A DNA stretch of 64,000 nt. It comes from an uncultured Bacteroidia bacterium (GTDB lineage Bacteria > Bacteroidota > Bacteroidia > Bacteroidales > F082). The notes under the pieces are model-generated. The model was not told the DNA's origin and did no database searches. It worked only from the letters and a program-made list of their open reading frames with translations. Location of the stretch: contig CADCJT010000005.1 in NCBI GenBank assembly GCA_902801815.1, positions 38,099-102,098 of the forward strand. The letters run 5' to 3'. Below are positions 12,930 through 28,430 of the stretch, one piece after another. Numbering within the stretch: position 1 is the stretch's first letter; the number at the start of each line of letters is the position of its first letter. The position numbers and the translations under genes were made by a program.

Positions 12930-13000
12930 TTGCCCAACCAGGATTCGAACCTAGACTAACTGATCCAGAGTCAGTTGTGCTGCCATTACACCATTGGGCA
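12930..13000 (-). tRNA. tRNA-Gln (anticodon CUG)
   Basis: The reverse complement TGCCCAATGGTGTAATGGCAGCACAACTGACTCTGGATCAGTTAGTCTAGGTTCGAATCCTGGTTGGGCAA folds by hand. It gives a 7-bp acceptor stem, anticodon stem ACTGA/TCAGT with loop CTCTGGA, and T arm CTAGG-TTCGAAT-CCTGG. No CCA is encoded. Confidence 0.9.
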
Positions 13001-13013
13001 TCCAAATCGGCTG

Positions 13014-13021
13014 CAAAAATA
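13014..13021 (-). promoter_or_regulatory. -7 box TATTTTTG (minus strand) driving tRNA-Gln
   Basis: The reverse complement of CAAAAATA lies 14 nt upstream of the mature tRNA 5' end. Confidence 0.55.
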
Positions 13022-13112
13022 CGCTTTTTTTGAATGTTGCAACTAAAAACGAGGATTTTTTTTTCGATTTTTTTTGCTTGGCGAGAATGGAGGCGGGATA
13101 AGCCCCTCATTC

Positions 13113-13901
13113 TCAGTATTTGTTGAAACGCGATCCCCAATTGTACGACAGCATGAAGGTGACAAAGAGCCAGCGGTCGCGTTCCGAGTCGATGATGGAG
13201 ACGCCCATGGGGAAGCACTCTACCTTGACGTCGACGTTGATGGCTTGCACCGAGGTGCGCGACTTGGCGAAGTCGAAGCTGAGACCCAACGAGGCATGGG
13301 CGCCAGGCGAGAGCTTGCTCTCGCCAAGGCCTTTGGTGAAAGCCGATCGTCCCAGGATGTCGATGCCTTGCTCGAAGGTCTGCTCTTGCACCGACTCCAC
13401 ATAGCCACCCGAGCCGTTGGGGATGTAGGTGACCACTTGGTAATAATAGGGCTTGAGCCAAGCCAACGATGCGCCAAATTCGTAGGTCCAGCGCGTCTCG
13501 ATGCCGCCCCAATAAGGCTTGCCGAAGATGCGCCGCTCCTCGCCGTAGCCGAAGCGGGCCACGTAGACGTAGTTCAGCTTACCATAGACGAAAGGACGCA
13601 TGTTGACGGTGGAGATGTTCAAGGTCTTGATCTCCTTGAGCGAGCGCAGCGACACCACCTCGGCCTCCCAGTTGCGCGTCAGGTTGATGCTCTTGATGCG
13701 CCCTATCTTGAATCCCGCGCCGAAGCCCCGCGAGTGGATGGCCACGTTGAAGGTGTTCTGGTGGTTGTAGACCAACTTCTCCTCCAAGGGCTTGTCGTCA
13801 TCGCTCTGGATGTCGATGTTTTGCGCAGGCAACAAAAAAGCGCACGCTCCGAAAAGCGTGAGCATGAGGATGCGCAATAGGCGTTGTTTGAGGGCAGTCA
13901 T
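13113..13901 (-). CDS. Hypothetical outer-membrane beta-barrel-like protein
   Basis: 262 aa. Signal peptide MTALKQRLLRILMLTLFGACAFLLPAQ, alternating beta-strand pattern, aromatic C-terminus ...RFNKY. Confidence 0.5.
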   Translation of the reverse strand: MTALKQRLLRILMLTLFGACAFLLPAQNIDIQSDDDKPLEEKLVYNHQNTFNVAIHSRGFGAGFKIGRIKSINLTRNWEAEVVSLRSLKEIKTLNISTVNMRPFVYGKLNYVYVARFGYGEERRIFGKPYWGGIETRWTYEFGASLAWLKPYYYQVVTYIPNGSGGYVESVQEQTFEQGIDILGRSAFTKGLGESKLSPGAHASLGLSFDFAKSRTSVQAINVDVKVECFPMGVSIIDSERDRWLFVTFMLSYNWGSRFNKY

Positions 13902-13924
13902 GGCATTGGGTTATATGTATCACA

Positions 13925-13970
13925 GGTCCCTGAGCCCTGAGCCCGTCGAAGGGCCGAAGGGCCGTGCACC
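13925..13970. repeat. Solo/half copy of the CCCTGAGCCCGTCGAAGGGCC element (same family as the ptrB insertion at 62238-62295)
   Basis: GGTCCCTGAGCCCTGAGCCCGTCGAAGGGCCGAAGGGCC read directly in the intergenic region. Confidence 0.6.
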
Positions 13971-14163
13971 CAACACCTAAATTAATAGCGCGTCTCCTTG
14001 ATGTATTTTGACGATTCGCCGTAGGCCGGGCAGGTTTTGCTTGACCCACAAGAAGTCAGGATAATGCCTGAGACAAAGGCGATTAACAGGGCGATGACAA
14101 GTTTTCTCTTCATAGAAATCAAATTTGATTTGCAAAGTAACGCATTTTTCTCCGAAAAATTGC

Positions 14164-14171
14164 CATCTTTG
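14164..14171 (+). promoter_or_regulatory. Imperfect -7 box CATCTTTG upstream of ung
   Basis: 17 nt before ATG 14188. One mismatch to TAnnTTTG. Confidence 0.35.
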
Positions 14172-14187
14172 CAGAAAAATTAAAGAA

Positions 14188-14865
14188 ATGGAAGTAAAGA
14201 AACCCAATATCGACGAAAGCTGGTACCAAGTGCTGCGGCCGCAGTTCGAGGCACCCTATTTCGCCGACCTCAAGTCGTTCCTCGTGAGCGAGAAGCGGCA
14301 GTATGCCGTCTATCCCCCTGGTCCTTTGATCTTCAACGCCTTCAACCTCACGCCTTTCGACAAGGTGAAGGTGGTCATCTTGGGTCAGGACCCGTACCAC
14401 GGCCCGGGACAGGCCCACGGCCTCTCGTTCTCGGTGCCCGACGGCGTGCCTTTCCCGCCCAGCCTGCAGAACATCTTCAAGGAGCTGCACGACGACCTCG
14501 GCGTGCCTATGGCGCGCTCTGGCAACCTCGAGAAGTGGGCTAGGGAAGGGGTGCTGCTCCTCAACGCCTCGCTGACGGTGCGCGCCGGACAGGCCGCCTC
14601 GCACTCGCGCCACGGCTGGGAACAGTTCACCGACGCCGCCATCCGCGCCCTGTCGGAGCAACGCGAGCACCTCGTCTTCATCCTCTGGGGCAACTACGCC
14701 ATCGCCAAGCAGGCCCTGATCGACCCGTTCAAACACTTGATACTGAAGTCAGTGCACCCGTCGCCCCTCTCCGCCAGCCGCGGCTTCTTCGGGTGTCATC
14801 ATTTTTCGCAAACGAATAATTATTTGATACAACACGGAATAGAACCTATTGACTGGAGTTTATAA
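14188..14865 (+). CDS. ung: Uracil-DNA glycosylase
   Basis: Start set at [12 protein letters not shown]. Motifs [22 protein letters not shown] and HPSPLSA. Confidence 0.93.
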
Positions 14866-15024
14866 TGGGATTGCTTCGCAAGAAATCTTTAAAAAATCGA
14901 AAATAAAATCGATCAAAAATCTCTTTTCTACGTCTTTTTACTATGGTGGTGTTTTTGAAAGATTTTAAAAATGATTTTTGATAGATTTCTTGTCCGTAGG
15001 ACAATTCCCCAAAACAAAAGAAAA

Positions 15025-15606
15025 ATGAAACAAATCGTATTTGCCACCAATAATAAGAACAAACTGCGCGAGATGCGCGAAATCATGGAGGGCCTCTACG
15101 AGGTCCTGAGCCTCGACGACATCGGCTGCCACGACGACATTGTCGAAGACGCCGACACCATCGAAGGCAACGCCAAGATCAAGGCGGACTTCGTCACCAA
15201 CAAGTACCATGTGGACTGTTTCTCCGACGACTCCGGCCTTGAAGTGGAGGCCTTGGGCGGCGCCCCAGGCGTCTATTCGGCCCGTTATGCCGGTGAGCAT
15301 TGTACCTATCAGGACAACGTCGACAAGATGTTGGCGGCCATGAAGGGCCAGACCAACCGCAAGGCGGCCTTCCGCACCTGCATCGCGCTGAACCTGGATG
15401 GGAAATCCTATTTCTTCGAAGGCCGTTGCGATGGTCGCATCACTGAGGAGCAACGCGGCACCGATGGCTTCGGCTACGACCCCATCTTCCAGCCCGACGG
15501 CTACGAGCAGACCTTCGCCGAACTGGGCCACGAAGTGAAAAACGCCATCAGCCACCGTGGCAAGGCCACGCGTAAGCTGATCGCGTTTTTGAAGGACTTG
15601 GGTTGA
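15025..15606 (+). CDS. rdgB: dITP/XTP pyrophosphatase (non-canonical purine NTP pyrophosphatase)
   Basis: Start set at MKQIVFATNNKNKLREM. Motifs SDDSGLEVEALGGAPGVYSARYAG, FGYDPIF, ISHRGKA. Confidence 0.9.
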   Translation: MKQIVFATNNKNKLREMREIMEGLYEVLSLDDIGCHDDIVEDADTIEGNAKIKADFVTNKYHVDCFSDDSGLEVEALGGAPGVYSARYAGEHCTYQDNVDKMLAAMKGQTNRKAAFRTCIALNLDGKSYFFEGRCDGRITEEQRGTDGFGYDPIFQPDGYEQTFAELGHEVKNAISHRGKATRKLIAFLKDLG

Positions 15607-15802
15607 GTCGTAAACACAAAAGAAGGCATCCGTCATTCATAGTCAACCGGTCGGTAGTGCGCCGTGCGGCCTAAGCCGTACATTCGGATGACAACGTGCT
15701 GAGCCTGCGCCGTGCTGTTCATCGTGAACGGGTGCTGCCGGCTCCGGGCAACGATCAGTGGTGGGGGTTCGGTTCGCCCTACAAATGCGGATGCCTTGTG
15801 GT

Positions 15803-16258
15803 TCAGACCAGCTCGGTCTGGAAGTTGAGCGCCTGTATCTCCATGTCGAGTTGGCGCAGCTGTGCGGAGCATTCGTCCACCTTCTTGCCGATGGCTTTCA
15901 CGTCGACCACGGTCACCGTCTTGATCTCCGAGCGCGAGTAGCGGTCCTGTCCCGCCGAGGCGGTGTCGAAGATGCTGCGCAGGTTGCTGACACGCATGGT
16001 CAGCACGTCCTTGCGGGCCATGAGTTGGGTGAGGGTGACGCCCTGGGCGTTGGTGGTCTTCATGTTGGTGGCGTTGATGCGCCAGATGAGGTCTTCGAGC
16101 TGCGTGAGGCAGGCGTCGAGTTCCTTCATCAGCTCCGTGGGCTCTTCCGAAGGCGCGTCGCCTTCCTGCACCTTCACGTTGTTTTGTATGCGCTGTCCCA
16201 GCTGTTGGATGCGCTTTTGCAGGTCTTTCCTGATGCTTAATGCTTCTGCGAGTTTCAT
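15803..16258 (-). CDS. DIP1984-family (septicolysin-like) protein
   Basis: Start set at MKLAEALSIRKDLQKRIQQL. KVQEGDAPSEEP and DRYSRSEIKTVTVVDV match my recollection of this family. The N-terminal extension in the ORF track was rejected. Confidence 0.7.
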   Translation of the reverse strand: MKLAEALSIRKDLQKRIQQLGQRIQNNVKVQEGDAPSEEPTELMKELDACLTQLEDLIWRINATNMKTTNAQGVTLTQLMARKDVLTMRVSNLRSIFDTASAGQDRYSRSEIKTVTVVDVKAIGKKVDECSAQLRQLDMEIQALNFQTELV

Positions 16259-16370
16259 AGGGGATGGATTTAACTCCGTTGATTCTTCGAATTTGGCGCA
16301 AAGATAAGAAAAAACTGGGAAAGGGGAACGTTCTAGCTTTGTGGTTTGTGGCCGCATTTTGTGCCCCAAA

Positions 16371-16409
16371 CCTTGCGGGTTGAGAAAAATGTTGTATTTT
16401 TGCAGCCAG
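16371..16409 (+). promoter_or_regulatory. Promoter cassette copy P0 (CCTTGCGGGTT-GAGAAAAATGTTGTATTTTTGCAGCCAG; -7 box TATTTTTG at 16395-16402)
   Basis: Shares CCTTGCGGGTT...GAAAA.GTTGTA.TTTTGCAG with the cassettes at 31291, 31743 and 31939. Confidence 0.5.
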
Positions 16410-16568
16410 AAATAAGTCAGGAATCAGGTATGACCTTCCGAAAGTCCGCGCGGAGGCCTATCGTTTCAGTGCGACTTACCTCCTGCATTCTGCGGCAACA
16501 CTACGGGTGGAAATCGGGATGAGAGAACACCGACAACAGGACTCTTAAGATTTCCATCCGTTTTTGTT
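16408..16568 (+). ncRNA. Candidate ~160-nt small RNA (unclassified)
   Basis: Begins just after the -7 box. Ends with an 11-bp stem GGGTGGAAATC (16505-16515) / GATTTCCATCC (16549-16559) followed by GTTTTTGTT. No ORF. Confidence 0.3.
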
Positions 16569-16632
16569 ATGTCTTAATGACCGTGATGCAATACTGCACT
16601 TTATCGTTTGTCCATCCTTGCGTTGGCATGGA

Positions 16633-16690
16633 CCAGCAGCCATGTCATGCCAACGCGGGCAAGTGCGTGGATGGGCATCTATGGCTGCGG
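16633..16690 (-). repeat. GC-rich palindromic ~57-bp repeat, full copy (inverted orientation)
   Basis: CCAGCAGCCATGTCATGCC...GGGCATCTATGGCTGCGG is the reverse complement of the GCAGCCATAGAT...CATGACATGGCTGCTG family. Confidence 0.8.
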
Positions 16691-17045
16691 CATTTTTTCC
16701 TTCCTTTTCCTTGATGAAAAGTAAGCGAAAAATCAAGGCCGCCTCCATCGGACCTCCCCGCGGCTGTCTAAACGCCTGACTTTCAGGTCGGGTAGTGCCT
16801 ATCGGCAAACGCAAGCGCCCCTCTGTGAAAGTCAACCGTTTAGCCATCCCTTGCGGGCGCTTCCCCGCCCGGCGGCCCCGCCTCCCCGCCCAACCCAGCT
16901 GAGTTTTGGCATTCCCGCTCGTGGCATACGGGCGGGAAACAGCACTCCAACGGACAACGCCCTCCCTTTACCCTCATCGCGGACCTCCCCCTTTCAAAGG
17001 GGGTGCCCGAAGGGCGGGGGATTAAGGGTCCGTGATCTCCTAAAG

Positions 17046-17714
17046 TTACCCGATTATTTCCTTATAAAGCATTACCCCTTTCGCCGTCAGCAGGTATTTC
17101 TGCCTTGGATGGCGGGGCGTGTCGGGATATAAAAGACGGACGAAACCTTTTGAAATAGCGGGGTTAAGGTGAACTTTTAAAAAATTGTCTCGTCCCTTAA
17201 GTTCCATACCCATCATCATTTCTTTTACGGATAGTTTCTGATGTCCGATAACTTGTAAAAGACCAATTACATCTGGGCTAACATAACCAAACTTGTCCTG
17301 TACTTGTCCTGCGCTTGTCCCTAACTTATGGGGTACTTGTTCGGGTACTTGTCCTGAACTTATAGGGGTGCTTGTCGGGTCTACTAGATTAGGTTGTCGT
17401 TCAAACTGCCGACCTCTTCTGCATTCTTCTTTATTCACGGATTCAACTCTGGTGTATGTCTGATACTCTTTCCATGCAGTCCTGTTCTTTCGCTTCTTGG
17501 CATAATGCTTGTCAAGTAGGTCAGACACTTCATCCATGGTCAAATCACCTTCGATGTTTTTGCGTGCGAGTTCAAGAAGATAGTCCGACACCTGCAATCC
17601 ATCCACGGCCTGCAGTCCGATGGCCGTACTCCAAGCATAGGCGGCCTCGCGCTGCGCGGGCTCTCCTTGCCGTATATATTCATCGAAGTCTATGTAATGC
17701 TGCTCTTTGGCCAT
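17046..17714 (-). CDS. VbhA-like antitoxin domain fused to a Fic-associated C-terminal wHTH domain; no Fic (HPFxxGNGR) core
   Basis: The N-terminus EPAQREAAYAWSTAIGLQAVDGLQVSDYLLELARKNIEGDLTMDEV resembles VbhA-type Fic inhibitors. The C-terminus has a degenerate QVP repeat plus SVKEMMMGMELKGRDNFLKVHLNPAISKGFVRLLYPDTPRHPRQKYLLTAKG. Confidence 0.55.
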   Translation of the reverse strand: MAKEQHYIDFDEYIRQGEPAQREAAYAWSTAIGLQAVDGLQVSDYLLELARKNIEGDLTMDEVSDLLDKHYAKKRKNRTAWKEYQTYTRVESVNKEECRRGRQFERQPNLVDPTSTPISSGQVPEQVPHKLGTSAGQVQDKFGYVSPDVIGLLQVIGHQKLSVKEMMMGMELKGRDNFLKVHLNPAISKGFVRLLYPDTPRHPRQKYLLTAKGVMLYKEIIG

Positions 17715-17796
17715 GGCGTGTCATCGTGAATCAGGCTTCAAAGATACGAAATTTTGGTGGATTATGGGCGGTTTTTTCTCGTTTTTATTCAAGGCT

Positions 17797-17850
17797 CAGC
17801 AGCCATGTCGTCCTGATGTAGGCAACGACCAGCAGCCATGTCATGCCATC
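17797..17850 (-). repeat. Two truncated tandem copies of the GC-rich palindromic repeat
   Basis: CAGCAGCCATGTCGTCC... and CCAGCAGCCATGTCATGCCATCC read directly. Confidence 0.6.
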
Positions 17851-17881
17851 CTTTCTGCCCATGTCATCCCCACGTTGGCCT

Positions 17882-17938
17882 CAGCAGCCATGTCATGCCA
17901 ACGCGGGCATGTGCGACGGCGGGCATCTATGGCTGCGG
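17882..17938 (-). repeat. GC-rich palindromic repeat, full copy (inverted orientation)
   Basis: CAGCAGCCATGTCATGCCAACGCGGGCATGTGCGACGGCGGGCATCTATGGCTGCGG. Confidence 0.8.
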
Positions 17939-18234
17939 TTTTGTCTCCATTGTCCGGCAATAAGGAAAGAAGAGGATAGGCTTTCGCATACCCTAGGCAA
18001 GGAGTTGGCAAGGAGTTGGCAAGGTGTAGGCAAGGAGTTGGCATACTCAACCATACCCTTTGAGTATGGCTAGAGCGTAGGAAGGGCGAAGGAAAAGCGA
18101 GAGAAGCCTGTGCTGAGAAGCATTGATGGAGTGTTTGGCGGTGCGGGGAGTTTCGTGGAGGATGGTTTTTGGGTATTGAACTTGGAAAAATGAAAAAAAT
18201 AGCAGTAAAATGAAAATTATTCAAATTTATTGTC

Positions 18235-18242
18235 TATTTTTG
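18235..18242 (+). promoter_or_regulatory. -7 box TATTTTTG upstream of the AAA ATPase gene
   Basis: Perfect TAnnTTTG 28 nt before ATG 18270. Confidence 0.5.
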
Positions 18243-18269
18243 CAGGAAATCTACAAAATCAATAGTCAA

Positions 18270-19499
18270 ATGATACTCAAAATTGAATTTGAAAACTTCT
18301 TCTCGATAAAGGAGCGTATAAGAATTGATTTTAGGGCTGCCAACATCAACACTGCCCTTGCCCGTGAACTTAGCCATAATGTAATGGAGTGGAAAGGTGT
18401 GCCTATACTCAAGACAATAGGATTATTTGGCCCCAACGCATCAGGCAAGTCGAATATTCTAAAGGCTATCGTTTTTTGTTGCAGGATGGTTTTGGATTCC
18501 CATCAATATAATGAGGGTAAGATATTCGATTTCGAACCTTTTAAGTTTGATGGTTGGCAGGAGAAGCCAAGTAAGTTTCTTATTGATTTTGTTTGTGATA
18601 ATGTGGAATATGAGTATTCTTTTGAACTTACCCGTGAGCGCATCATCAGTGAGAGTTTGTATCATTATCCATTGGGCAGACGAGCAAAGATGTTCGAACG
18701 CAGGGCCGGTGACAAGTATAGTTTTGGCACAGGCATCATGGCAAAGCCGTCGGACGTGGCAGTTAACACCAGTGAGAAGAACCTCTTCCTTAGCCGAGCC
18801 AGTTCCATGAATCGCGAGTTTGCACAAAAGCTCTATCGCTATTTCCTAAACCAGTTCCTGCTTGGATTGGTGAATGTAAATGACATGGTGGTATTGGATA
18901 ATTTCAACACCTATAAGCCGCTAATTCTCAAGGCACTTGAAATATGCGATACGGATATTACCGACATCGAGGCAAGGACAGAACAAGTTCCAGCTCCTGT
19001 TGTCGTTCCTGGTCAACAAGAACTGTCATATAGATTGGTAGACGTTCTCCGCTTTAAGACATTTCATCGTTATCAGAAGGATGTTATGTTTGACATGGAC
19101 ATGGAAGAGTCTAACGGAACAAGGAAACTATTCCAAATACTTATTCGACTTCTTGATGTGGTCAGGAACAAGAAAAGCATACTGATGGATGAATTTGACA
19201 TGGGGCTACACACGCGTTTGGCCGATTTCGTTCTCGACTTGATCCATGCTTCAGAAAGCAGTCAGTTGTTGTTTACCTCACACAACACGAACCTCATTGA
19301 CGTAAAAAGATTGAGACGTGACCAAATTGTGTTTGTCAACAAATCCGAAAATGGGGTTACGGAAGTTTATTCCTTGTACGACTTCAAGGATTTCCGTGAA
19401 AACATGGATGCAGAGAAGGGTTATATACAAGGCCGTTTCGATGCTATACCTTATGTAGACTCGTCTGTTGAGAGTGTCCAACAATTGCTGGAGGGTTAA
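18270..19499 (+). CDS. AAA_21/ABC-type ATPase (RloA/AbiLi-like, defence-associated)
   Basis: Start set at MILKIEFENFFSIKE, after the promoter. Walker A GLFGPNASGKSNILKAI, Walker B ILMDEFDMGLH, LLFTSHNTNL. Confidence 0.8.
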   Translation: MILKIEFENFFSIKERIRIDFRAANINTALARELSHNVMEWKGVPILKTIGLFGPNASGKSNILKAIVFCCRMVLDSHQYNEGKIFDFEPFKFDGWQEKPSKFLIDFVCDNVEYEYSFELTRERIISESLYHYPLGRRAKMFERRAGDKYSFGTGIMAKPSDVAVNTSEKNLFLSRASSMNREFAQKLYRYFLNQFLLGLVNVNDMVVLDNFNTYKPLILKALEICDTDITDIEARTEQVPAPVVVPGQQELSYRLVDVLRFKTFHRYQKDVMFDMDMEESNGTRKLFQILIRLLDVVRNKKSILMDEFDMGLHTRLADFVLDLIHASESSQLLFTSHNTNLIDVKRLRRDQIVFVNKSENGVTEVYSLYDFKDFRENMDAEKGYIQGRFDAIPYVDSSVESVQQLLEG

Positions 19500-19501
19500 C
19501 C

Positions 19502-19707
19502 ATGGCAAGTAAAAGAGAAAAGGCTCCGTCGAAAAGAATGCGTAGAATTGCGCTTGTTATTTGTGAAGGATGACGCTGTTATTGTAAGCCAGCACGCCAG
19601 ACTTCGAGAACATGGCGAAAGTCATAGAATGGGCGAAAAGGATGGAGGATTACAAGAATTCTTCTTTTTCGGTTTATCGGTTGATTGAGGGGATGGAGAA
19701 GGGATAA
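19502..19707 (+). pseudogene. Remnant of an RloB-like partner gene (N-terminal 23 codons then a stop; a C-terminal tail in another frame)
   Basis: The ATG is 2 nt after the ATPase stop. It encodes MASKREKAPSKRMRRIALVICEG*, and RloB proteins begin ...R-(I/L)L(I/V)VCEGEKTE. 19612-19707 reads NMAKVIEWAKRMEDYKNSSFSVYRLIEGMEKG*. Confidence 0.45.
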
Positions 19708-19749
19708 ATTCCACTTTTGCAATATCTTGTGAGAGACTGAAAAATTGTT

Positions 19750-19757
19750 TATTTTTG
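19750..19757 (+). promoter_or_regulatory. -7 box TATTTTTG; putative promoter of the six-gene HNH/MTase-HIT/jetABCD operon
   Basis: Perfect TAnnTTTG. No other intergenic space exists until 28248. Confidence 0.5.
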
Positions 19758-19783
19758 CGTCAAATTATGAAGGGAGAAATACT

Positions 19784-20842
19784 GTGTTATTACCGCAAAA
19801 TAAAGAATTATCAGTTTCAAGATTATCGGGAGTTTTTGATAAAACGGTTGCGACATACAAGTTCTATTGGTTTGTGTCGTTGCTTGATATTGTGGTGAAA
19901 GAACGGAAGACAAAGATGTCATTATGGGAAATCATTGCAGGAATGGTGGCGGAATCATGGTATCCGATTCACTATTTCAAACTATCATTCGGCAAATCCG
20001 ATTCGCTTTATGTCCAGTCGATGGCTTTACAGCAGGAATTTGGCATTTCGATAGACGCTGATAGAACAAGAATCAAACGGATTTTACTCGACAACATTGA
20101 TAACAGTCGTACAAAGAGCTTGTTGCGAGTTTTCACGCTAAATGTTCCGTATCGTTTTTTGTCGCCTTGGATAACATATACAACAGATAATGATGTGGTG
20201 TCTCGTTCCCAGCGATTTGAAAACAATTGTTTATATGCTATTAGTGGCGAAACAATTGAACTTAATCCCGTATGGAGAGATTACTTGATGGAACATTACG
20301 GTATTTTACGCGATTTTGCATTCTGGAACTTGGCCGTTTTCCTCCAGAAACGTAATCCAAATGTTCCCGATGTTCCTTCAAAACTGATAAAGCCGATTTT
20401 GCGCGATTCATTGACACGTCAGCATAAGTTTTGGGATGCATATATTGAAACCGTTGGTTCAATTCACTGTATATATACCGACAAACCATTGGCTATTAAA
20501 GGCTATGATTTAGACCACTTTATTCCATGGAGTTTTGTGTCACACAATTTGTTATGGAATTTATTACCAGCTGATTCGAGCATTAATTCGTCGAAGAGCA
20601 ACAACCTGCCGTCTTTAGAAAAGTATTTGAAACCATACGCGAATTTGCATCATGAGGCTTTGAAAACCCTTTATCCAAAGAAACCTACTGACAAGATTTT
20701 TGAGGATTATCTTACGGTCTATGATTCAGTTCCAGAATTGATTCGTCTAACTGATGATGATTTTTGTAATGTATTTCAGAGAACTTTTTCGCCAATGGTG
20801 CAAATTGCTGAAAATATGGGATTTAATTATTGGAAAACATGA
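19784..20842 (+). CDS. HNH (beta-beta-alpha-Me) endonuclease with a large uncharacterised N-terminal domain
   Basis: YDLDHFIPWSFVSHNLLWNLLPADSSINSSKSNNLP is a Cas9/McrA-type HNH motif. The ~250-aa N-terminus (LSGVFDKTVATYKFYWFVSLLDIV...) is unrecognised. The start is uncertain: GTG 19784 lies downstream of the promoter, while the ORF-track TTG 19745 lies upstream of the -7 box. Confidence 0.72.
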   Translation: MLLPQNKELSVSRLSGVFDKTVATYKFYWFVSLLDIVVKERKTKMSLWEIIAGMVAESWYPIHYFKLSFGKSDSLYVQSMALQQEFGISIDADRTRIKRILLDNIDNSRTKSLLRVFTLNVPYRFLSPWITYTTDNDVVSRSQRFENNCLYAISGETIELNPVWRDYLMEHYGILRDFAFWNLAVFLQKRNPNVPDVPSKLIKPILRDSLTRQHKFWDAYIETVGSIHCIYTDKPLAIKGYDLDHFIPWSFVSHNLLWNLLPADSSINSSKSNNLPSLEKYLKPYANLHHEALKTLYPKKPTDKIFEDYLTVYDSVPELIRLTDDDFCNVFQRTFSPMVQIAENMGFNYWKT

Positions 20843-21711
20843 AAACAATCAAAAACAATCCTCATTTGACGGCCAAAGAACGCACATCGATTTCGTTCCC
20901 GACACGCTGGCTCAAACAAAATAACCTTCTGAAAGGCGAGATTTTGGATTTCGGCTGTGGATTTGGTTTTGATACGGACGAACTTCAAAAGGAAGGTTTC
21001 GATATTGTAGGGTATGACAATTATTACCGTCCCGAATTTCCGACAAAGCATTTTGACACCATCATTTGCAATTATGTTCTGAATGTACTTGAGCCCAAAG
21101 AACAGGCACAGGTGCTGATGGAAGTTTCGGAGCTGCTCAAGCCAAATGGAACTGCTTATTTCACCGTTCGCCGTGATATAAAATACGAAGGATTCAGAAC
21201 CCATTATGTTCACAAACAACCCACATATCAGTGCAATGTTGTGTTGCCCTATAAAAGTCTGTTCCTCAACGAGAATTGTGAGATATACGAATACAAGCAT
21301 TTTAATAGAACCAGCTACAAAGAGAAATACACATTATCAAGCGGATGCCCGTTTTGCAAATTGAATTCCAAGGTTGAATTAGTTTGTGAAACTGCAACGG
21401 CCGTGGCGTTTTTTGATGGATACCCAGTGAGCAAAGGGCATACATTAATAATACCCAAGCGCCATGTGGCTAACTATTTTGATTTAACATATGGAGAGCA
21501 ACAAGATTTGTGGCAAATGGTGAACCATTGCAAGACTATATTAGAAAAGCGATTTAACCCTGATGGATTCAATGTTGGAATCAATGTAAACCAAGCTGCT
21601 GGTCAGAGTGTGTTTCATGTGCATATACATTTGATACCTCGTTACAATGGTGATGTTGAGAATCCTAAAGGCGGGGTTAGAGGGGTGATAAAGGAAAAAC
21701 AAATTTATTGA
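20830..21711 (+). CDS. Fusion protein: class I SAM-dependent methyltransferase (N-terminal) plus HIT-family histidine-triad nucleotide hydrolase/transferase (C-terminal)
   Basis: Motif I ILDFGCGFGFD, post-I DIVGYD and ICNYVLNVLEPKEQAQVL...LKPNGTAYFTV, then CPFCKL...GHTLIIPKRHV...AGQSVFHVHIHLIPR (HxHxHxx). It overlaps the HNH gene by 13 nt. Confidence 0.8.
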   Translation: MENMKTIKNNPHLTAKERTSISFPTRWLKQNNLLKGEILDFGCGFGFDTDELQKEGFDIVGYDNYYRPEFPTKHFDTIICNYVLNVLEPKEQAQVLMEVSELLKPNGTAYFTVRRDIKYEGFRTHYVHKQPTYQCNVVLPYKSLFLNENCEIYEYKHFNRTSYKEKYTLSSGCPFCKLNSKVELVCETATAVAFFDGYPVSKGHTLIIPKRHVANYFDLTYGEQQDLWQMVNHCKTILEKRFNPDGFNVGINVNQAAGQSVFHVHIHLIPRYNGDVENPKGGVRGVIKEKQIY

Positions 21712-21712
21712 A

Positions 21713-23170
21713 ATGAAACGGCAAGGCAGTATTATAGAAATATTAAATAATTCACCAAGCATTGCATTGTTGCGTGCAAGAAGTTGTAATATCATACTCG
21801 AATTCTTTACAATTGTCTTTGATAACTCAGCGGCTATTTCTCTCGAAAACATTCATTGTCAATTGGCGGATTTCCTAAACGATCATGGTGTTGAGGTCGA
21901 TGAAGAAAATGACATTCAGTTTTCTGACACGTATGAGGAAAAAGCGGCAAAATACATCAAACGATGGACAGACAGCGGCTTCTTGACAAATTATAGAAAT
22001 GAAGATGGTGAGATTTATTATGAGCTATCATCTCATTCAAGTAAAGTTATTGATTGGCTGTCAGGATTGAAGCAAGAAGAATATATTGGCACGGAGTCAA
22101 AGTTTAAATCAATTATTACTCAGTTGAAAGAATTGGTGGAATTCACCAACGAAGACAGGGGAAAGCGCCTGCAATTGTTGGAAGATAAGAAACAAGAAAT
22201 TGAATATCAGATTCAGCAATTGCAGTTGGGAGAGGATGTCAAAGTTTTTGAGGAATACGAGATTGTGCCTAGATTTCAACAAATCAACAAACAAGCAAAA
22301 GAACTGTTGACTGATTTCAAAGACGTTGACGACAACTTCAAGGCTATTATCAAGGAGATTTATCAGAAACAGATTGACCAGACGTTGAATAAAGGCAGTA
22401 TTCTTCAATACACTTTTGATGCACTGGATGAATTGAAATCCAGCTCACAAGGCAAGAGCTTCTATGCTTTTTGGGAGTTTCTGTTGGCGCGTGAAATGCA
22501 GTCGGAGTTAGATGCTCTTGTTTCGGAGCTTTTCCAAACACTAAATAAAAAGAATATTGATAGTAGTGACACCTTCCTGAAAAACATGGTGGAATATCTG
22601 TACGATTCTGGAAGGAAAGTGTATCAGACCAACGACAAGATGGCTGACAAACTAAGCCGTATCATCCGCGAAAGTGAGATGGCACGTTCAGATATGGCCA
22701 AGCGTGTTGTTCAGGAAATTAAGAATACGCTAATTGATATTTCTAAGAAAAGACATAAACCGGACATTTCATTGACAGTTGATGCCGGAATGGAGATTAG
22801 TATCCCCTTTGACAGACAGATTACTTTCGAACAGGATGAGGATACTGAATATGCATTTAATCCTGAATCTGGCAATTTGTCAATAGATGAGTTTGGTGAG
22901 TTGGGCAAAGTATTTGGCAATGTACACGTTGACCGTAAGGTGTTGGAGAGGAATATACGTGAGGCAATGAATGACAAGAGCCAAATAGCGTTATCAGATG
23001 TCATTGAGCAATATCCGTTGAAACAAGGTCTATCAGAATTATTTGCCTACTTTGGAGTATTAAGGCAATTTCCTCACAATTCAATCAACGAAGAAAAGCG
23101 TCAGGCCATAATGTTTGATTATAAGAACAATAAACGAATTCTGATTCCAGAAATAATCATTTCGCTATGA
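21713..23170 (+). CDS. jetA: Wadjet JetA (DUF3375-type kleisin-like subunit)
   Basis: 485 aa. N-terminus SPSIALLRARSCNIILEFFTIVFDN fits the DUF3375 pattern. Operon position and sizes match JetABCD. Confidence 0.82.
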   Translation: MKRQGSIIEILNNSPSIALLRARSCNIILEFFTIVFDNSAAISLENIHCQLADFLNDHGVEVDEENDIQFSDTYEEKAAKYIKRWTDSGFLTNYRNEDGEIYYELSSHSSKVIDWLSGLKQEEYIGTESKFKSIITQLKELVEFTNEDRGKRLQLLEDKKQEIEYQIQQLQLGEDVKVFEEYEIVPRFQQINKQAKELLTDFKDVDDNFKAIIKEIYQKQIDQTLNKGSILQYTFDALDELKSSSQGKSFYAFWEFLLAREMQSELDALVSELFQTLNKKNIDSSDTFLKNMVEYLYDSGRKVYQTNDKMADKLSRIIRESEMARSDMAKRVVQEIKNTLIDISKKRHKPDISLTVDAGMEISIPFDRQITFEQDEDTEYAFNPESGNLSIDEFGELGKVFGNVHVDRKVLERNIREAMNDKSQIALSDVIEQYPLKQGLSELFAYFGVLRQFPHNSINEEKRQAIMFDYKNNKRILIPEIIISL

Positions 23171-23736
23171 ACGAGCAGAAACCATATTCGAAAGCAATCA
23201 TCCTTTTACTAAAGAAAACCGTTGAAAAAGGTTCGCCGGTTTGGGATGACATCATAAACTATCAGATAGAGATTCAGGAATATTTGGCAGTTATAGGACT
23301 GGAATTGATTTTGAAAAAAGAAGAGGGTTTTGCCTTCGTAAAACAAATTGTGTTTGATGACAATGCCACATTGAATCTAGTTTCCAGACGGCAATTAGGA
23401 TTCGAGGTTTCCATTGTGGTAATTGTACTTCGCCAGATTCTGGAGGATTACGACAACAACCCCGTGGAAACCCAATCGGTGGACAGAATCATAACTAACA
23501 ATGAGATAAAAGATGAAGTTCGGTTGTTTTTGCCCGAGAATTTCAACAAGGTAAAACTTGAAAAAGACTTGGACCGATATATACAGACTGTGGCTGATTT
23601 GGGCTTTTTGAAAGAAGTGAAACGTAATGGCGATGAAGTGCGTTACAAGATTCACCGTATCATCAAAGAAAAAGTAACACTCGAAGATTTGGACGTATTC
23701 AAGAAAAATTTGGAAGAGTATGCAGGAACAATATGA
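23167..23736 (+). CDS. jetB: Wadjet JetB (DUF4194-type KITE-like subunit)
   Basis: 189 aa. AIILLLKKTVEKGSPVWDDI...EYLAVIGLELILKKEEGFAFVKQ. ATGA overlap with jetA. Confidence 0.82.
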   Translation: MNEQKPYSKAIILLLKKTVEKGSPVWDDIINYQIEIQEYLAVIGLELILKKEEGFAFVKQIVFDDNATLNLVSRRQLGFEVSIVVIVLRQILEDYDNNPVETQSVDRIITNNEIKDEVRLFLPENFNKVKLEKDLDRYIQTVADLGFLKEVKRNGDEVRYKIHRIIKEKVTLEDLDVFKKNLEEYAGTI

Positions 23737-26700
23737 TTTGTTTACAACCAATGCCGGAACTGCTGGCTATCGGTTGAACTATATGGAAATATATAACTGG
23801 GGTACGTTCAACAACCGAATATTTCGGATTGCTCCAGAAGGTAACAATACGCTGTTGACGGGTGCTAACGCTTCTGGCAAGAGTACCCTAATAGATGCAC
23901 TACTGACATTACTTGTGCCAGCTAAGAAAGACAGATTCTACAACCAGTCATCTGGAAATGAGCGAAAAGGAGATAGAACGGAAGAGACCTACGTTCTTGG
24001 CAATTATGGTAATATACAGGCTGAAGGCGAAATGTCAACCAAGACGCAACAGCTCCGTGATAAAAAGACCTATTCGGTTTTGCTGGCTTCGTTTACTAAC
24101 AATCATGACAATGTGGTGACTTTGTTTCAAGTGCGTTGGTTTGTAAATGGTGAGATGAAATGTTCATATGGATTCTCATCGATGCCGCTATCCATTGGCA
24201 AGGATTTCTCGGGCTTTAATGGTAACAAAGGTGACTGGAAAAAAATGTTGGAGAAACACTATAATGGTAATATGCCGAAAAAACAGATAGAGTTTTATGA
24301 CACTATAAAGGACTATAAAGATAGAATTATTAGTGCATTCGGACTTCGATCTGACAAGGCACTCATACTATTCAACCAAATAATTGGAGTGAAGGTCCTG
24401 AACGATTTGGACGAATTCATCCGCAATAATATGCTTGAACAACGCGATTCGGAAAGCGAATATATTCGTCTGAGTGAGAGTTTTGCCACTTTGATGGAGG
24501 CCAAGACAACCATTGATAAGGTTAAAGAACAGATAGCTCAGTTGGAACCGATAGATGAGAAAGCTAAGAAACTGGAGAAAATAGAATCGACACTAAAGGA
24601 TTTGCAAAACACTCGGGACATGGCCGTGTATTGGTTTGCCCAAAAGAATGTTGAACTAGCGAACGCACGTATAGCCAAACTAAATGAGAAATTAGTTGCC
24701 CTGAAGCAAGAACTTGAACAATTGAATCAAGAGAAAGAAGATCTGAAGAAAAAGGAAAGTGAACTGAGGTTCTCTATAGAAAGTGACGATGTCGGCAGGC
24801 AAATAAGAACGTTGAAAGATGAAATAAGTAGGCTAGAGCAAAAAAAGAAGACTCGCCAGTTTAAACTTGAAGAGTACAATAAGATGGCTCTTGAAGTGGG
24901 CTTCAGTAAGAATCCCACCGAGCGGGTTTTTTTTGAGAATCGAGAGAAGTCAAAAGAAAAAAGGGATGATTGTCAAAGAGATTTAGGAGAAAAAAATGAA
25001 GATTTGCGTCATGCGCTGAATGAAAAGGAACGTATAGAACAAGAGATAATAGAGAATACTGAAATTGTAAAGACTCTACTAAAGAATAAAAACAATATTT
25101 CTGGTCGAGAAGCTGAAATAAGAGAATTGATTTTGCAAGAGGTTGGAGCAGCGGCAAACGAAATTCCTTTTGTTGGTGAATTGATTCGTGTAAAGGATAG
25201 TGAAAAGGAGTGGGAAAACTCCATCGAGAAAATTCTGCACAATTTTGGCATACGCCTAATTGTGCCAGAGAAATATTATAAAGCCGTTAGTGAATTTGTC
25301 AACTCCAATAACCTGCGGGGGAAGATTGTGTATCATCGTTATGAGACATCATCATCGTTGAGAGGCTTTCAGAATCCACCTGCAAATTGCTTGTTGAACA
25401 AGCTGGAATTTAACACGAAAAGTCCTTATAGTAGTTGGGTTGAAGATGCCATTGCCGACCACTATAATTATGCTTGTGTTTCAGACTTGGATGAGTTCTA
25501 TCTTTACAAGGAAAAAGCTGTAACAATAGAGGGTCTAATTAAGTCCGTGCATAATAAGCACGAAAAAGACGACCGACCGAAGACAAGCAGTAGAGAAAAC
25601 TATGTTCTGGGGTGGGACAACAAGGAAAAAATAGCATCCATTCGTGCTATAGTAAAGAATTTGCAGAACCAGCAAACTCAAAACAAGGAGGCTATCCGTA
25701 AGATTAAGGCTGAAATTGATACAATTGAAAAACGAAAAGAAATATATGATGATATTTTCAAACTATTTTCTAGATTTGAGGAGGTAAATTGGGAAGAGAC
25801 CGCAAGATTTATTCAAGAAAAAGAAGACAGAAAGAAAGAGCTTGAGACGACTAACGACAAGGTAAAAGCTCTGCAAAGACAACTGGAAATTGTTCAAGGA
25901 GATTTATCGAAATTGGAAAAAGAAACTATTGTCGAAAAAAATGGCGAAATCTTCCAAATAGAAAAAGTTGATTTAGTGAATGCTAACAAAAGGTTGTCAG
26001 AAAACAAGCCAATACTTGATAACCTTGGGATTATCGATGTCGCTGTCTTTGAAGAAAACAATATAACTTGGCTCGATGTAACTTTCGAAACAATTGAATC
26101 GAAAAAGACGGCTCTCCAGTCGGACATTATGCAGAAAGAAGATACTGCGAAATCTGAGAAAGCAAGTGTCGAAGGAGAGACTGCCGACCTGATAAGGAAA
26201 TTCAAAAACCCATCAGAAGAAATTATCCAAAGATTCAAGGATTGGCGTTCCGACGTTCATACCTTGCCAGAAGCAAGTAGCATCAACCTGATTGGTGAAT
26301 ACCAGAAGTTCTATAATAGGCTGGTAAAAGAGGATCTTGTGCGTCATGAAAAAAAGTTTGATGAATACCTCCAAGAAACAGTAACGAATAAAGTCTCAGC
26401 TTTCAGGATGTTTTTCAACAATTGGGAAAAGTCAATTAGAGAAACGATTGAAATGCTGAACAAATCGCTTTATGGAATAGACTTCAACACATCTCCTGTG
26501 ACATATATCCAACTGGTCAACTCTAAACGTTTTAATCCAGAAATAGCGGACTTCAGGAGAGAGCTTGACAATGCAATTCCAAATATCCATGAAACCAATG
26601 CAACCATTGACGGTAAACGTGTCCATTTTGAACAAAAGATACAACCTCTTATGGAACATCTTAAAAACGAACAATGGAGACGTAAAGTGATGGATGTAAG

Positions 26701-27136
26701 GAGTTGGTTCTCGTATAAGGCTGAAGAGTTCTACAAAGAAACTGGACAGAAGTTCAAGACATACGAAAGTATGGGACAACTGTCTGGAGGTGAAAAGGCT
26801 CAGCTCACTTATACCATTTTAGGCTCAGCCATAGCCTATCAGTTTGGACTCACAAAAGACGGTTTGCAAGCTAAATCTTTGCGTTTTATAGCAATTGACG
26901 AGGCTTTCAAAGCTCAAGATGAAGACAAGGCTCGCTATTTGATTTCGCTATGCAAACAATTGAACTTACAATTGCTGGTTGTAACCCCCAGCGATAACAT
27001 ACATATTGTAGAAAATGATATCTCATTTGTCCATTATGTTGAACGTCGGGGAAACGAATCAATCTCAATTGATATGTCAATTGAGCAGTTTAAGCAAGAA
27101 CGTGAAAAATTTCTAGCCAATGATAACCCCAGCTGA
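23720..27136 (+). CDS. jetC: Wadjet JetC (SMC-like ABC ATPase)
   Basis: 1138 aa. Walker A LLTGANASGKSTLIDAL, long coiled-coil middle, signature QLSGGEKAQLTYTILGSAI, Walker B LRFIAIDEAF. Confidence 0.9.
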   Translation: MQEQYDLFTTNAGTAGYRLNYMEIYNWGTFNNRIFRIAPEGNNTLLTGANASGKSTLIDALLTLLVPAKKDRFYNQSSGNERKGDRTEETYVLGNYGNIQAEGEMSTKTQQLRDKKTYSVLLASFTNNHDNVVTLFQVRWFVNGEMKCSYGFSSMPLSIGKDFSGFNGNKGDWKKMLEKHYNGNMPKKQIEFYDTIKDYKDRIISAFGLRSDKALILFNQIIGVKVLNDLDEFIRNNMLEQRDSESEYIRLSESFATLMEAKTTIDKVKEQIAQLEPIDEKAKKLEKIESTLKDLQNTRDMAVYWFAQKNVELANARIAKLNEKLVALKQELEQLNQEKEDLKKKESELRFSIESDDVGRQIRTLKDEISRLEQKKKTRQFKLEEYNKMALEVGFSKNPTERVFFENREKSKEKRDDCQRDLGEKNEDLRHALNEKERIEQEIIENTEIVKTLLKNKNNISGREAEIRELILQEVGAAANEIPFVGELIRVKDSEKEWENSIEKILHNFGIRLIVPEKYYKAVSEFVNSNNLRGKIVYHRYETSSSLRGFQNPPANCLLNKLEFNTKSPYSSWVEDAIADHYNYACVSDLDEFYLYKEKAVTIEGLIKSVHNKHEKDDRPKTSSRENYVLGWDNKEKIASIRAIVKNLQNQQTQNKEAIRKIKAEIDTIEKRKEIYDDIFKLFSRFEEVNWEETARFIQEKEDRKKELETTNDKVKALQRQLEIVQGDLSKLEKETIVEKNGEIFQIEKVDLVNANKRLSENKPILDNLGIIDVAVFEENNITWLDVTFETIESKKTALQSDIMQKEDTAKSEKASVEGETADLIRKFKNPSEEIIQRFKDWRSDVHTLPEASSINLIGEYQKFYNRLVKEDLVRHEKKFDEYLQETVTNKVSAFRMFFNNWEKSIRETIEMLNKSLYGIDFNTSPVTYIQLVNSKRFNPEIADFRRELDNAIPNIHETNATIDGKRVHFEQKIQPLMEHLKNEQWRRKVMDVRSWFSYKAEEFYKETGQKFKTYESMGQLSGGEKAQLTYTILGSAIAYQFGLTKDGLQAKSLRFIAIDEAFKAQDEDKARYLISLCKQLNLQLLVVTPSDNIHIVENDISFVHYVERRGNESISIDMSIEQFKQEREKFLANDNPS

Positions 27137-28247
27137 AATAAAGAAGAAAGCAGCAAATAAGTACAAGGTATATTTGCAATCTATCGTTGAAGGAAAGCCT
27201 TTCAACCCAATTGTTATTGTTGGTGATAAGAAGCCTAACGAGGATACTGGAAGATTTGAGGCAGAGTTGACAGAGTTAATAAGCTATTCTAAGGAAAGAA
27301 AGGGATATGGTTATATAATTGAATTCCAAACCGTAAAAACTAAAAGACACGGATTACAAGATATTCCAACATCTATAAGTTTTCAAACAGAATTTGATTA
27401 TTTGAAATATATTAACGAAGAAAATAATACTGCAAAATTCAAAGAAGACATAGCCTATATTCTTTCATTATTCCCAGAATTGAAGGGATGGATATCCAAA
27501 TATCCCATTAAAGTAATAGAGAATGATTGGGAGAGCCTACTAAAAGTATGTGAGTATTTCAAGGAGACGCCCCATCCTCATCTCTATATTCGTGAATTAC
27601 CTATAAAGGTGCATACTAAATTCATAGAAAGCAATAAAGGCATTATTAGAGAATTGCTTGATATAATTATTGCGGAACATATCAATGTAGATGAAAAGCA
27701 TTTTGAAAGACGTTTCGATCTCAAATACGACGAACCTTTAGTGCGTTTTCGGATATTAGACAAGAACATCAGTTTGCAACAATTTGGAGGTATTGATGAT
27801 TTAAGTATTTCGATAAGTGAGTTTCAACATTTGTCTGTTCCCATCCAGACTGTGTATTTGGTCGAGAATAAGATTAATATGTTGACCTTTCCCAATAAAA
27901 GAGACAGCATTGTCATTTGGGGACACGGATTTGGAGTCGATATAATGAAAGATGTTGAATGGCTCCAGACGAAAAAGATTTATTACTGGGGAGATATAGA
28001 TGCTCAAGGATTCCAAATTCTTTCAGAAATCAGAACTCATTTCAGACAGGTAGAGAGTTTTTTGATGGATAAAGATACTTTTGGAAAGTATTATGAAGGC
28101 GATAAAGGTACGAAGACAAATGTTGAAATAGAATTGTGCCTTACACAAGAAGAATTGGAATTGTTCAGACGCCTAAAAGAAAACAATTCGCGATTGGAGC
28201 AAGAGAAGATACCATTTGAATATGTTGTGACAAAAATACCAACATAG
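27120..28247 (+). CDS. jetD: Wadjet JetD (DUF3322 + DUF2220 Toprim-like nuclease subunit)
   Basis: 375 aa. VYLVENKINMLTF (Toprim Glu) and IYYWGDIDAQGFQILSEIR (DxD). 17-nt overlap with jetC. Confidence 0.88.
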   Translation: MITPAEIKKKAANKYKVYLQSIVEGKPFNPIVIVGDKKPNEDTGRFEAELTELISYSKERKGYGYIIEFQTVKTKRHGLQDIPTSISFQTEFDYLKYINEENNTAKFKEDIAYILSLFPELKGWISKYPIKVIENDWESLLKVCEYFKETPHPHLYIRELPIKVHTKFIESNKGIIRELLDIIIAEHINVDEKHFERRFDLKYDEPLVRFRILDKNISLQQFGGIDDLSISISEFQHLSVPIQTVYLVENKINMLTFPNKRDSIVIWGHGFGVDIMKDVEWLQTKKIYYWGDIDAQGFQILSEIRTHFRQVESFLMDKDTFGKYYEGDKGTKTNVEIELCLTQEELELFRRLKENNSRLEQEKIPFEYVVTKIPT

Positions 28248-28430
28248 AAATCAACAGCTTTTATTGGTATTAGCTGAAAAACTCAAAGAAGATGAGGGCT
28301 ATTTTTATAACAAGAACTCATTCCTTGACATCTTCAAAGGCTTAACCCGTCTAAAACAAGAAAAGGACGATGAATCTGAAGAGGCTCCTGAGTCGTTGGA
28401 TTAGTTTTTTTTAAATATCCCTTGCTGCAT

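Follow-up and report, generated by a model that had tools for sequence, protein, structure and literature searches.

Is a gene pair that abuts a Wadjet operon a part of Wadjet, or does it form a system of its own? The question is posed by a 64,000-nucleotide stretch (the window) of contig CADCJT010000005.1, from an uncultured Bacteroidia bacterium of the order Bacteroidales, in which a gene for an HNH nuclease and a gene for a methyltransferase (MTase) fused to a HIT domain directly precede jetABCD. The six open reading frames (ORFs) lie on the same strand between 19.7 and 28.2 kb with essentially zero intergenic space, and both the ORF table and the raw sequence agree here with an earlier note on this DNA, which was made from the sequence alone. 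That note offered two readings of the pair, namely an accessory or sensor module of Wadjet and an independent two-gene system carried in the same transcript. The second is supported by the co-conservation of the two genes, by stand-alone loci in another phylum and by the lack of a convincing match to the pair in PADLOC 2.0 or in the literature searched. On balance, we lean towards an autonomous restriction-modification (RM)-like HNH plus MTase-HIT module that was ancestrally lodged in Ssp/Pbe-type clusters and behind which jetABCD is independent cargo. Judged from its genes and their neighbourhoods, the pair appears to be conserved across at least two phyla as an autonomous, translationally coupled two-gene module.

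Boundaries and conservation of the gene pair

The HNH gene is assigned to positions 19784-20842 of the forward strand (352 amino acids, aa, with a GTG start) and the MTase-HIT gene to positions 20839-21711 of the same strand (290 aa, with an ATG start). Both genes had at first been begun too far upstream, the former at 19745, as is evident from the lengths of their homologues (350-352 and 285-290 aa, respectively). The start of the HNH gene is fixed by DNA alignment, because GTG 19784, which the window shares with loci L009 and L012, aligns with the ATG of the other relatives. For the MTase-HIT gene the ORF, the homologue lengths and the junction all indicate ATG 20839 as the start; the two genes therefore overlap by the 4 nt of ATGA and not by the 13 nt (20830-20842) given in the earlier note. 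The same -4 junction is present in 67 of the 80 species loci described below. The remaining spacings stand as they were first described: the MTase-HIT stop codon (21709-21711) lies 1 nt from the jetA ATG at 21713, and the overlaps of jetA with jetB, jetB with jetC and jetC with jetD are 4, 17 and 17 nt. The TAnnTTTG box that had also been pointed out (tatttttg, 19750-19757, forward strand) occurs 27 nt before the start codon of the HNH gene, and L009, L010 and L012, the closest relatives, have kept it; read from the sequence, it is a putative Bacteroidota-type -7 promoter box, a sigma-70 promoter scan not being applicable to Bacteroidota. Spacing alone suggests that the pair may be co-transcribed with jetABCD.

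Conservation of the pair was surveyed from both of its members. The first survey, which took one genome per species and covered about 185,000 species genomes, was anchored on the HNH protein and retrieved 80 loci, in every one of which a HIT-containing gene lies directly 3' of the HNH gene. The reciprocal survey of metagenome contigs was anchored on the MTase-HIT protein and gave 80 loci, 76 of them with enough upstream sequence; the HNH gene adjoins the MTase-HIT gene in 75 of the 80, that is, in 75 of these 76. Of the five metagenome loci that lack it, four extend less than 300 nt upstream. L174, the fifth, is the sole MTase-HIT locus in which an HNH gene would fit but is missing; it carries a 356-aa transposase-like ORF (522-1592) in that position, which suggests the arrival of an insertion sequence. 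Adjacency in 80 of 80 and 75 of 76 loci is far beyond chance.

HNH relatives occur in at least 305 species stretches, nearly all of them from Bacteroidales, Paludibacteraceae and allied Bacteroidota. A wider search, with a profile derived from diverse family members, reached Chloroflexota at 34-40% identity, where Roseiflexus, Caldilinea and two further loci carry the HNH and MTase-HIT genes between housekeeping genes; the pair is likewise flanked by housekeeping genes in L001. A phage search for the pair returned a single match of 24% identity, in an unannotated 9.7-kb record. Because the two genes are co-conserved in both surveys and form stand-alone pairs in Chloroflexota, the pair is best regarded as an autonomous unit of which Wadjet is an occasional neighbour, and most of its copies are found without jetABCD.

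The exchangeable position behind the pair

The identification of the operon behind the pair as Wadjet was correct, and PADLOC (PADLOC-DB 2.0.0, 2023, the source of all system models used here) classifies it as a complete type I system. On the forward strand it comprises jetA (DUF3375; 21713-23170; JetA1, E = 1.1e-189, 629 bits), jetB (DUF4194/MksE-like; 23167-23736; JetB1, E = 7e-57, 190 bits), jetC (an SMC/MukB-like ATPase; 23720-27136; JetC1, 1095 bits) and jetD (the Toprim nuclease subunit; 27120-28247; JetD1, E = 6e-148, 491 bits), the last also matching Pfam JetD_C and DUF3322. For all four genes the matches to the PADLOC and Pfam models are full-length, and the genes form one operon.

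The notion that the pair serves JetABCD as an accessory or sensor, which was the principal reading of the earlier note, draws on the 1-nt spacing to jetA and on the one plausible promoter for all six genes. The order of pair and then jetABCD recurs in L023, L050 and L054 at about 70% identity, and SMC-type cargoes are among the commoner occupants of the position (type I Wadjet in three loci and an Mks-type set in four). Against this, co-occurrence with jetABCD is not consistent in the 80 species and 80 metagenome loci: jetABCD follows the pair in those three species loci and in one metagenome locus, and is not beside it in the other 77 and 79. The nearest relatives of the window pair (L009, L010, L012 and L013, with 83-96% protein identity) each carry a different cargo. 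With jetABCD so rarely beside the pair, and in a variable slot, a role of the pair within Wadjet is not supported and we consider it very improbable; for Wadjet itself the outcome is negative, with no new accessory.

Both edges of this slot are visible in blastn comparisons and alignments. The nucleotide similarity of the window to L009, L010, L012 and L013 spans both genes of the pair and ends at 21690-21713. The similarity returns at 28261, 14 nt beyond the stop codon of jetD, in a 3' remnant (28262-28406, forward strand) of the gene that closes a Pbe-type (CxC-ABC ATPase/DndE-like) cluster, the '191-aa' gene; this remnant forms the right edge of the slot. It aligns to L007, L012, L013, L014, L037 and L040 with the common ending PESLD-stop, and in L093 the counterpart of the 191-aa gene is annotated with Pfam DNA_S_mod_dnd_assoc_4. 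Loci L037 and L040 represent the empty slot, in which a 27-residue SspB remnant, the pair and a remnant of the 191-aa gene succeed one another with nothing between. Since homology breaks on both sides of jetABCD and the slot is empty in these two loci, jetABCD is a discrete cargo in an exchangeable position. The combination of the pair with jetABCD is nevertheless not recent, because L023 shares the six-gene block at about 70% identity and has a remnant of the 191-aa gene 3' of jetD.

According to the synteny tables, both flanks of the pair vary between loci while the pair is constant. The gene 3' of the pair is on the same strand in 61 of 76 loci and lies within 100 nt in 46 of 76. The cargoes that occupy the slot include Hachiman HamAB, a DruE-type helicase with a partner (in L042, at 11922-14642, a 906-aa partner without a match), TIR-APAZ with a short prokaryotic Argonaute (pAgo), LmuB-like ATPases, a Metallophos-STAND protein, type I Wadjet in the three species loci besides the window, and SspD followed by PbeA, a small protein, PbeC and the 191-aa gene. 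Others are a 1260-aa protein with partial similarity to DdmD accompanied by a 661-aa protein without a match (L012, 11950-17714; also in L013, L021 and L053), a 601-aa protein without a match (L027, 11936-13741; also in L041) and a four-gene Mks-type condensin set with products of about 400, 183, 1230 and 282 aa (L026, L043 at 11990-18254, L059 and L067). The last was assigned from Pfam MksE, DUF3584 and DUF7281 (below threshold), PADLOC 2.0 giving only a weak match to the N-terminus of JetC, and may be a compact Mks/Wadjet-like variant. The recurrent cargoes with scant annotation or none (1260 plus 661 aa, 601 aa and 906 aa) are candidates for unknown defence genes. The slot provides a clean natural case of cassette exchange in a Bacteroidales defence island and, because several of its cargoes match nothing known, it could be mined for unknown systems.

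Domain structure of the two proteins

The first gene is predicted to encode an active-looking Cas9-type HNH nuclease. The HNH_4 core, of the Cas9-type beta-beta-alpha-metal class, is encoded at 20468-20611 of the forward strand (Pfam HNH_4, E = 1.2e-10). Its D-L-D-H...N...N motif is intact, and D244, H245, N259 and N268 (in the 352-aa numbering) do not vary in 133 sequences, the most divergent of which have 34% identity. A PDB profile search with the protein retrieved Cas9 HNH domains only. In an AlphaFold2 model derived from the alignment of the 133 sequences (mean predicted local distance difference test, pLDDT, 94.9; predicted template modelling score, pTM, 0.88), the catalytic Asp-His and the Asn residues lie in a beta-beta-alpha fold, as is characteristic of HNH_4/Cas9-type nucleases, and Foldseek matched the HNH half to isolated Cas9 HNH domains with a probability of up to 0.85 and also to phage HNH domains. 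This model replaced one based on 30 close homologues (pLDDT 66.9), in which the HNH core was unmodelled and for which Foldseek returned noise (P450s and membrane proteins).

Residues 1 to about 205 (19784-20398, forward strand) form an orphan N-terminal domain, which the earlier note was unable to place and which is still unplaced. It is mostly helical, with one helix-helix-helix-beta-hairpin element at residues ~108-160. No Pfam family matched the N-terminal 219 aa at E of 10 or below, and a Foldseek search of the model against the PDB and BFVD found HNH cores only, residues 1 to ~205 being without a match. The possibility that the domain is a diverged triple winged helix-turn-helix of the SspB/DUF4007 type was rejected (hhalign probability 0.2%). 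Used alone as a query, the domain retrieves 1,339 representative clusters, most of them with the same architecture; in a few proteins it is fused instead to sigma-70 r2/r4, HTH_40 or LRR_5. The domain presumably recognizes DNA or another target and would thereby give the nuclease its specificity. A role in DNA recognition is suggested by the sigma-70 and HTH_40 fusions and by the helix-helix-helix-hairpin element, all of which fit it.

The second gene encodes a class I S-adenosylmethionine (SAM) MTase domain of the TIGR04096 type (20851-21318, forward strand) followed by a HIT domain (21370-21648, forward strand). The Pfam matches of the MTase domain (Methyltransf_23, 25, 11 and 12) are to generic families of the small-molecule type. 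Motif I, ILDFGCGFG (L36-D37-F38-G39-x-G41-x-G43), is intact (Methyltransf_23, E = 1e-11) and is kept in all 74 Bacteroidota loci that have the MTase domain. The TIGR04096 model scores 59.8 bits, over model positions 5-97 of 478 only, and thus falls short of the curated NCBIfam cut-off of 150 bits. Even so, residues 5-99 share 36% identity (E = 1e-13) with a protein of the Synechocystis plasmid pSYSM that is annotated as TIGR04096 in RefSeq, and the homology to this family, which the earlier note had named as a lead, is clear from the comparison of sequences. The HIT domain (PF01230, E = 5.7e-26 to 2.7e-25) is Fhit/Hint-like and has the histidine triad of that branch of the HIT superfamily, with HVHIHLIP at 21616-21639 and a CPFC motif upstream of it. 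The triad is intact in 77 of 77 Bacteroidota loci, and in sequence the domain comes nearest, among PDB entries, to bacterial HIT proteins, Fhit and Ap4A phosphorylase. The HNH, MTase and HIT motifs had all been read as intact at the outset, and the Pfam matches agree.

Association with phosphorothioate-type clusters

SspB (DUF4007), SspC, SspD, PbeA, PbeC or the 191-aa gene is found around the pair in 30 of the 83 loci of the first set and in 18 of the 80 metagenome loci, and many of these genes are shortened remnants. The most complete arrangement, in L062, consists of SspB, SspC, SspD, the pair, PbeA, PbeC and the 191-aa gene; it is the only locus in which SspB, SspC and SspD occur together. 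We infer that the ancestral order was SspB, SspC, (YhcG), HNH, MTase-HIT, SspD, PbeA, a small protein, PbeC and the 191-aa gene. The distant locus L093, in which the HNH protein is 38% identical, repeats the arrangement with DUF4007, HNH, MTase, an SNF2 helicase, an ABC ATPase and dnd_assoc_4. A Hymenobacter plasmid carries an HNH relative of 33% identity beside a cysteine desulfurase, DUF4007, an SspC-like gene and a 3'-phosphoadenosine-5'-phosphosulfate (PAPS) reductase. On pSYSM an HNH relative is situated between DUF4007/SspC-like genes and a cysteine desulfurase, and 5 kb from it lies a gene annotated in RefSeq as a 'DNA phosphorothioation-associated putative methyltransferase', of the TIGR04096 family and homologous to the window MTase. 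The Ssp/Pbe neighbours, L093, the plasmid loci and the TIGR04096 homology together tie both halves of the module historically to clusters of the phosphorothioate (PT) type.

Two details of the plasmid loci may be added. On pSYSM (L094, 3722-6660) the SspC-like gene beside DUF4007 encodes only 563 aa and is followed by an opposite-strand gene for a LAGLIDADG endonuclease, and the ssp-type cluster of this plasmid therefore looks interrupted. On the Hymenobacter plasmid the 638-aa gene after SspD has a 522-aa protein and an FtsK/SpoIIIE-domain protein as neighbours, an arrangement that suggests a DndFGH/SspFGH-like set and not a TIGR04096 MTase.

The same associations are the grounds on which the pair might be taken for a component of PT defence that depends on PT supplied by ssp, dnd or BREX type 4 genes, whether close by or at another place in the genome. 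The HNH protein would then be an SspE-like PT-sensing effector and the MTase-HIT protein would process PT-related nucleotides or DNA intermediates that carry an adenylate. Hydrolysis of nucleotide phosphoramidates and adenylates is an established activity of HIT enzymes, and Hint can desulfurize nucleoside 5'-phosphorothioates. However, most copies of the pair have no Ssp or Pbe gene within 6-10 kb, the 64 kb of the window contain no match to SspB, SspC, SspD, PbeA or PbeC, and the pair is intact in the window, L037 and L040 while the surrounding Ssp genes have been deleted. Furthermore, the orphan N-terminal domain has no Foldseek match in the PDB, the solved sulfur-binding domain included, and the PADLOC SspE models do not match the HNH protein. 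We regard a PT-dependent function as possible but rather doubtful. Under the RM-like reading, the pair would have been lodged ancestrally in Ssp/Pbe clusters and would be outliving them as they decay.

Upstream neighbour and genomic island

The gene upstream of the pair (18270-19499, forward strand) encodes an AbiLi-type AAA_21 ATPase (PADLOC AbiLi, E = 6.4e-80; Pfam AAA_21) and belongs to a neighbouring system, not to the pair. It is followed by an AbiLii/RloB pseudogene (19503-19706, forward strand), the interior of which is deleted. A 24-codon 5' stub at 19503-19574 (MASKREKAPSKRMRRIALVICEG, then a stop codon), which is probably RloB-like to judge from the N-terminus of RloB, is separated from a piece of about 100 nt at 19606-19706. 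In alignments with L009 and L012, this piece corresponds to the 3' end of their intact RloB/AbiLii genes. An intact AbiL system, with both the AAA_21 ATPase and an intact RloB/AbiLii, is not present in the window, AbiLii having decayed, and the system is probably inactive here. Only four of the 80 species loci (L009, L010, L012 and L013) have an AbiLi homologue immediately 5' of the pair, and in these it is followed by an intact RloB of 180-183 aa.

The presence of an AAA ATPase upstream of an HNH gene had been likened to Septu (PtuA ATPase plus PtuB HNH), and weak matches to PtuA (E = 4e-06) and PtuB (E = 0.0019) do exist. The analogy fails because the ATPase is AbiLi and the remnant of its AbiLii partner lies before the HNH gene; moreover, the constant partner of the HNH gene is the HIT-containing gene. 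A Septu-like system made up of these two genes deserves almost no credence, and it can be regarded, together with the Wadjet-accessory reading, as essentially excluded.

The block between 18.4 and 28.0 kb has a GC content of 34-42% as against 50-60% in the flanks. GC-rich, imperfect hairpin repeats of about 60-80 nt (core CAGCAGCCATGTCATGCC...GGCATCTATGGCTGC) stand in inverted orientation on the two sides of the AbiL-pair-Wadjet block, in one orientation at 16632-16700 and 17790-17948 and in the opposite orientation at 28655-28780, 30257-30333, 31224-31305, 31530-31560, 31676-31757, 31902-31934 and 32831-32912. They are dense downstream of the block, related copies occur in L012 and L041, and no Rfam family matched them. 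They could be elements resembling repetitive extragenic palindromes (REP) or miniature inverted-repeat transposable elements (MITE), terminators or recombination sites. Some 5 kb upstream of this low-GC island, a tRNA gene on the reverse strand (12930-13000; Rfam, 64 bits) may be a landmark of integration. On the other side, a reverse-strand ORF of 299 aa (28829-29728) belongs to neighbour-gene cluster C6, a homologue of which in L004 carries Pfam Virulence_RhuM. The same C6 gene is found beside the slot in L037, L040, L049 and L051, and the ORF may be a right-hand recombination anchor.

Proposed mechanism and significance

In the RM-like scheme that we prefer, we infer for the pair a defence role with self-marking. 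The second gene would supply a TIGR04096-type SAM MTase fused to a Fhit/Hint-like HIT nucleotide hydrolase or transferase, and this protein would make or maintain a self-mark or otherwise restrain the nuclease. The HNH protein would cut DNA that lacks the mark, with its N-terminal domain giving specificity. A self-mark coupled to a nuclease would make the pair hard to lose, which would explain its persistence. jetABCD would have replaced the sspD-pbeA...pbeC interior of an Ssp/Pbe cluster immediately after the MTase-HIT stop codon, and would probably make use of the promoter of the pair but not of its function. A more specific version, which we hold to be unlikely as it stands, is that the mark is not a methylated base but arises when DNA or a nucleotide undergoes HIT-type nucleotidyl or phosphoryl chemistry (for example, as a backbone or end that has been capped, adenylylated or methylated, or through the processing of phosphorothioate intermediates) and is read by the orphan N-terminal domain. 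The module would then anchor an exchange hot spot, in which defence systems are swapped behind its stop codon and driven by its promoter.

A number of observations weigh against the RM-like scheme. As had been remarked in the earlier note, the 290-aa translation contains no DNA-MTase motif IV, either as (D/N/S)PP(Y/F/W) or as PCQ. The partner gene in six of the 80 Bacteroidota species loci encodes a HIT-only protein (124-154 aa) from which the MTase domain is absent. Among Chloroflexota, the central HIT histidine is replaced by Cys or Tyr in L089 and L091, and the HIT end is degenerate in L093. Since each half of the second gene is dispensable in some lineages, a simple division of labour in which the MTase protects and the nuclease cuts cannot hold everywhere. 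PADLOC 2.0 gave no convincing match for the pair, the best being ThsC for the HIT protein (1.1e-10) and Cas9 for the HNH protein (3.5e-05). No MTase-HIT gene adjoins the more distant HNH relatives that cyanobacterial and proteobacterial plasmids carry. Some loci of the pair have purely housekeeping neighbours, and for this reason a role outside defence is possible. Finally, co-transcription with jetABCD is suggested by spacing only, and a terminator scan of the region gave nothing above chance either way.

Several of these features could also be accounted for by a toxin-antitoxin (TA)-like addiction unit, in which an HNH toxin is restrained by MTase-HIT, possibly with the HIT fold as a binding or nucleotide-sensing subunit, and which would mainly stabilize the island and mark a recombination hot spot, with no direct restriction of invaders as its chief effect. 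The pair persists while both of its flanks turn over, the two genes are tightly coupled in translation through the ATGA junction, the HIT fold is always kept even where the catalytic histidine or the MTase domain is lost, and the pair occurs alone in housekeeping contexts. On the other hand, both enzymatic sites are strictly conserved in Bacteroidota, which is surprising if the antitoxin acts by steric means alone. Searches of Pfam, NCBIfam and PADLOC matched no known TA family, and an RM-like unit would be just as likely to persist. We therefore consider an addiction unit of this kind improbable and retain the RM-like module as the preferred explanation.

Should the pair prove to be a working defence or addiction module, it would be a widespread system in which a HIT hydrolase or transferase is the constant partner of a nuclease. 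It would also bring to light a recognition domain without known fold relatives, spread over the 1,339 sequence clusters, and would give a function to the 'phosphorothioation-associated' methyltransferase type TIGR04096.

Comparison with known systems

The PADLOC run that had been proposed for the window recovered Wadjet and AbiLi and matched no named system to the pair. A full-text literature search found no description of an HNH plus HIT or MTase-HIT defence pair or of a HIT partner of Wadjet, and papers on PT reappraisal, BREX diversity and PT in the gut microbiome make no mention of the pair. Wadjet type I adjoins the pair, and is probably co-transcribed with it, in the window and in three other species; the pair is not, however, a part of that system, since more than 95% of its loci lack jetABCD, which in the window occupies an exchangeable slot. 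Thoeris type II also has a HIT-family protein, ThsC, in a defence locus, and the weak ThsC match of MTase-HIT extends over the HIT core. No ThsA or ThsB is nearby, the partner of the HIT protein here is an HNH nuclease and the HIT domain is fused to an MTase, and the match reflects the generic HIT fold.

A contextual parallel is offered by SspABCD-SspE and other PT-sensing nucleases (SspE itself and SBD-SRA-HNH proteins such as ScoMcrA). An HNH nuclease gene lies beside SspB, SspC or SspD in a substantial minority of loci and on the Hymenobacter and Synechocystis plasmids, in a position analogous to that of an alternative restriction partner. In contrast to these nucleases, the pair has no DUF262/DUF1524, SRA, PADLOC SspE match or match to a solved reader domain, the HIT-containing partner is obligatory in its subfamily and ssp genes are mostly not nearby. 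To our knowledge, the TIGR04096 family is known only from genomic association. Its N-terminal ~95 residues and Rossmann core are homologous to the window MTase, but its members are ~480-690 aa long with non-HIT regions, whereas here a domain of ~160 aa is fused to HIT.

The general plan is that of type II-like RM with an HNH nuclease and a separate methyltransferase, in which a nuclease gene is coupled to a SAM MTase gene; the pair likewise resides in defence islands and is retained as the genes around it decay. It differs in that its MTase lacks motif IV, is fused to HIT and is missing as a domain in six of the 80 loci, and in that its nuclease has an orphan N-terminal domain. In classical RM the nuclease and the methyltransferase are always encoded together; here the partner gene is always present in the 80 species loci, but in six of them it lacks the MTase domain. 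Set against these systems, the pair is a candidate for an undescribed module of nuclease plus modifier that is distinct from a Wadjet accessory.

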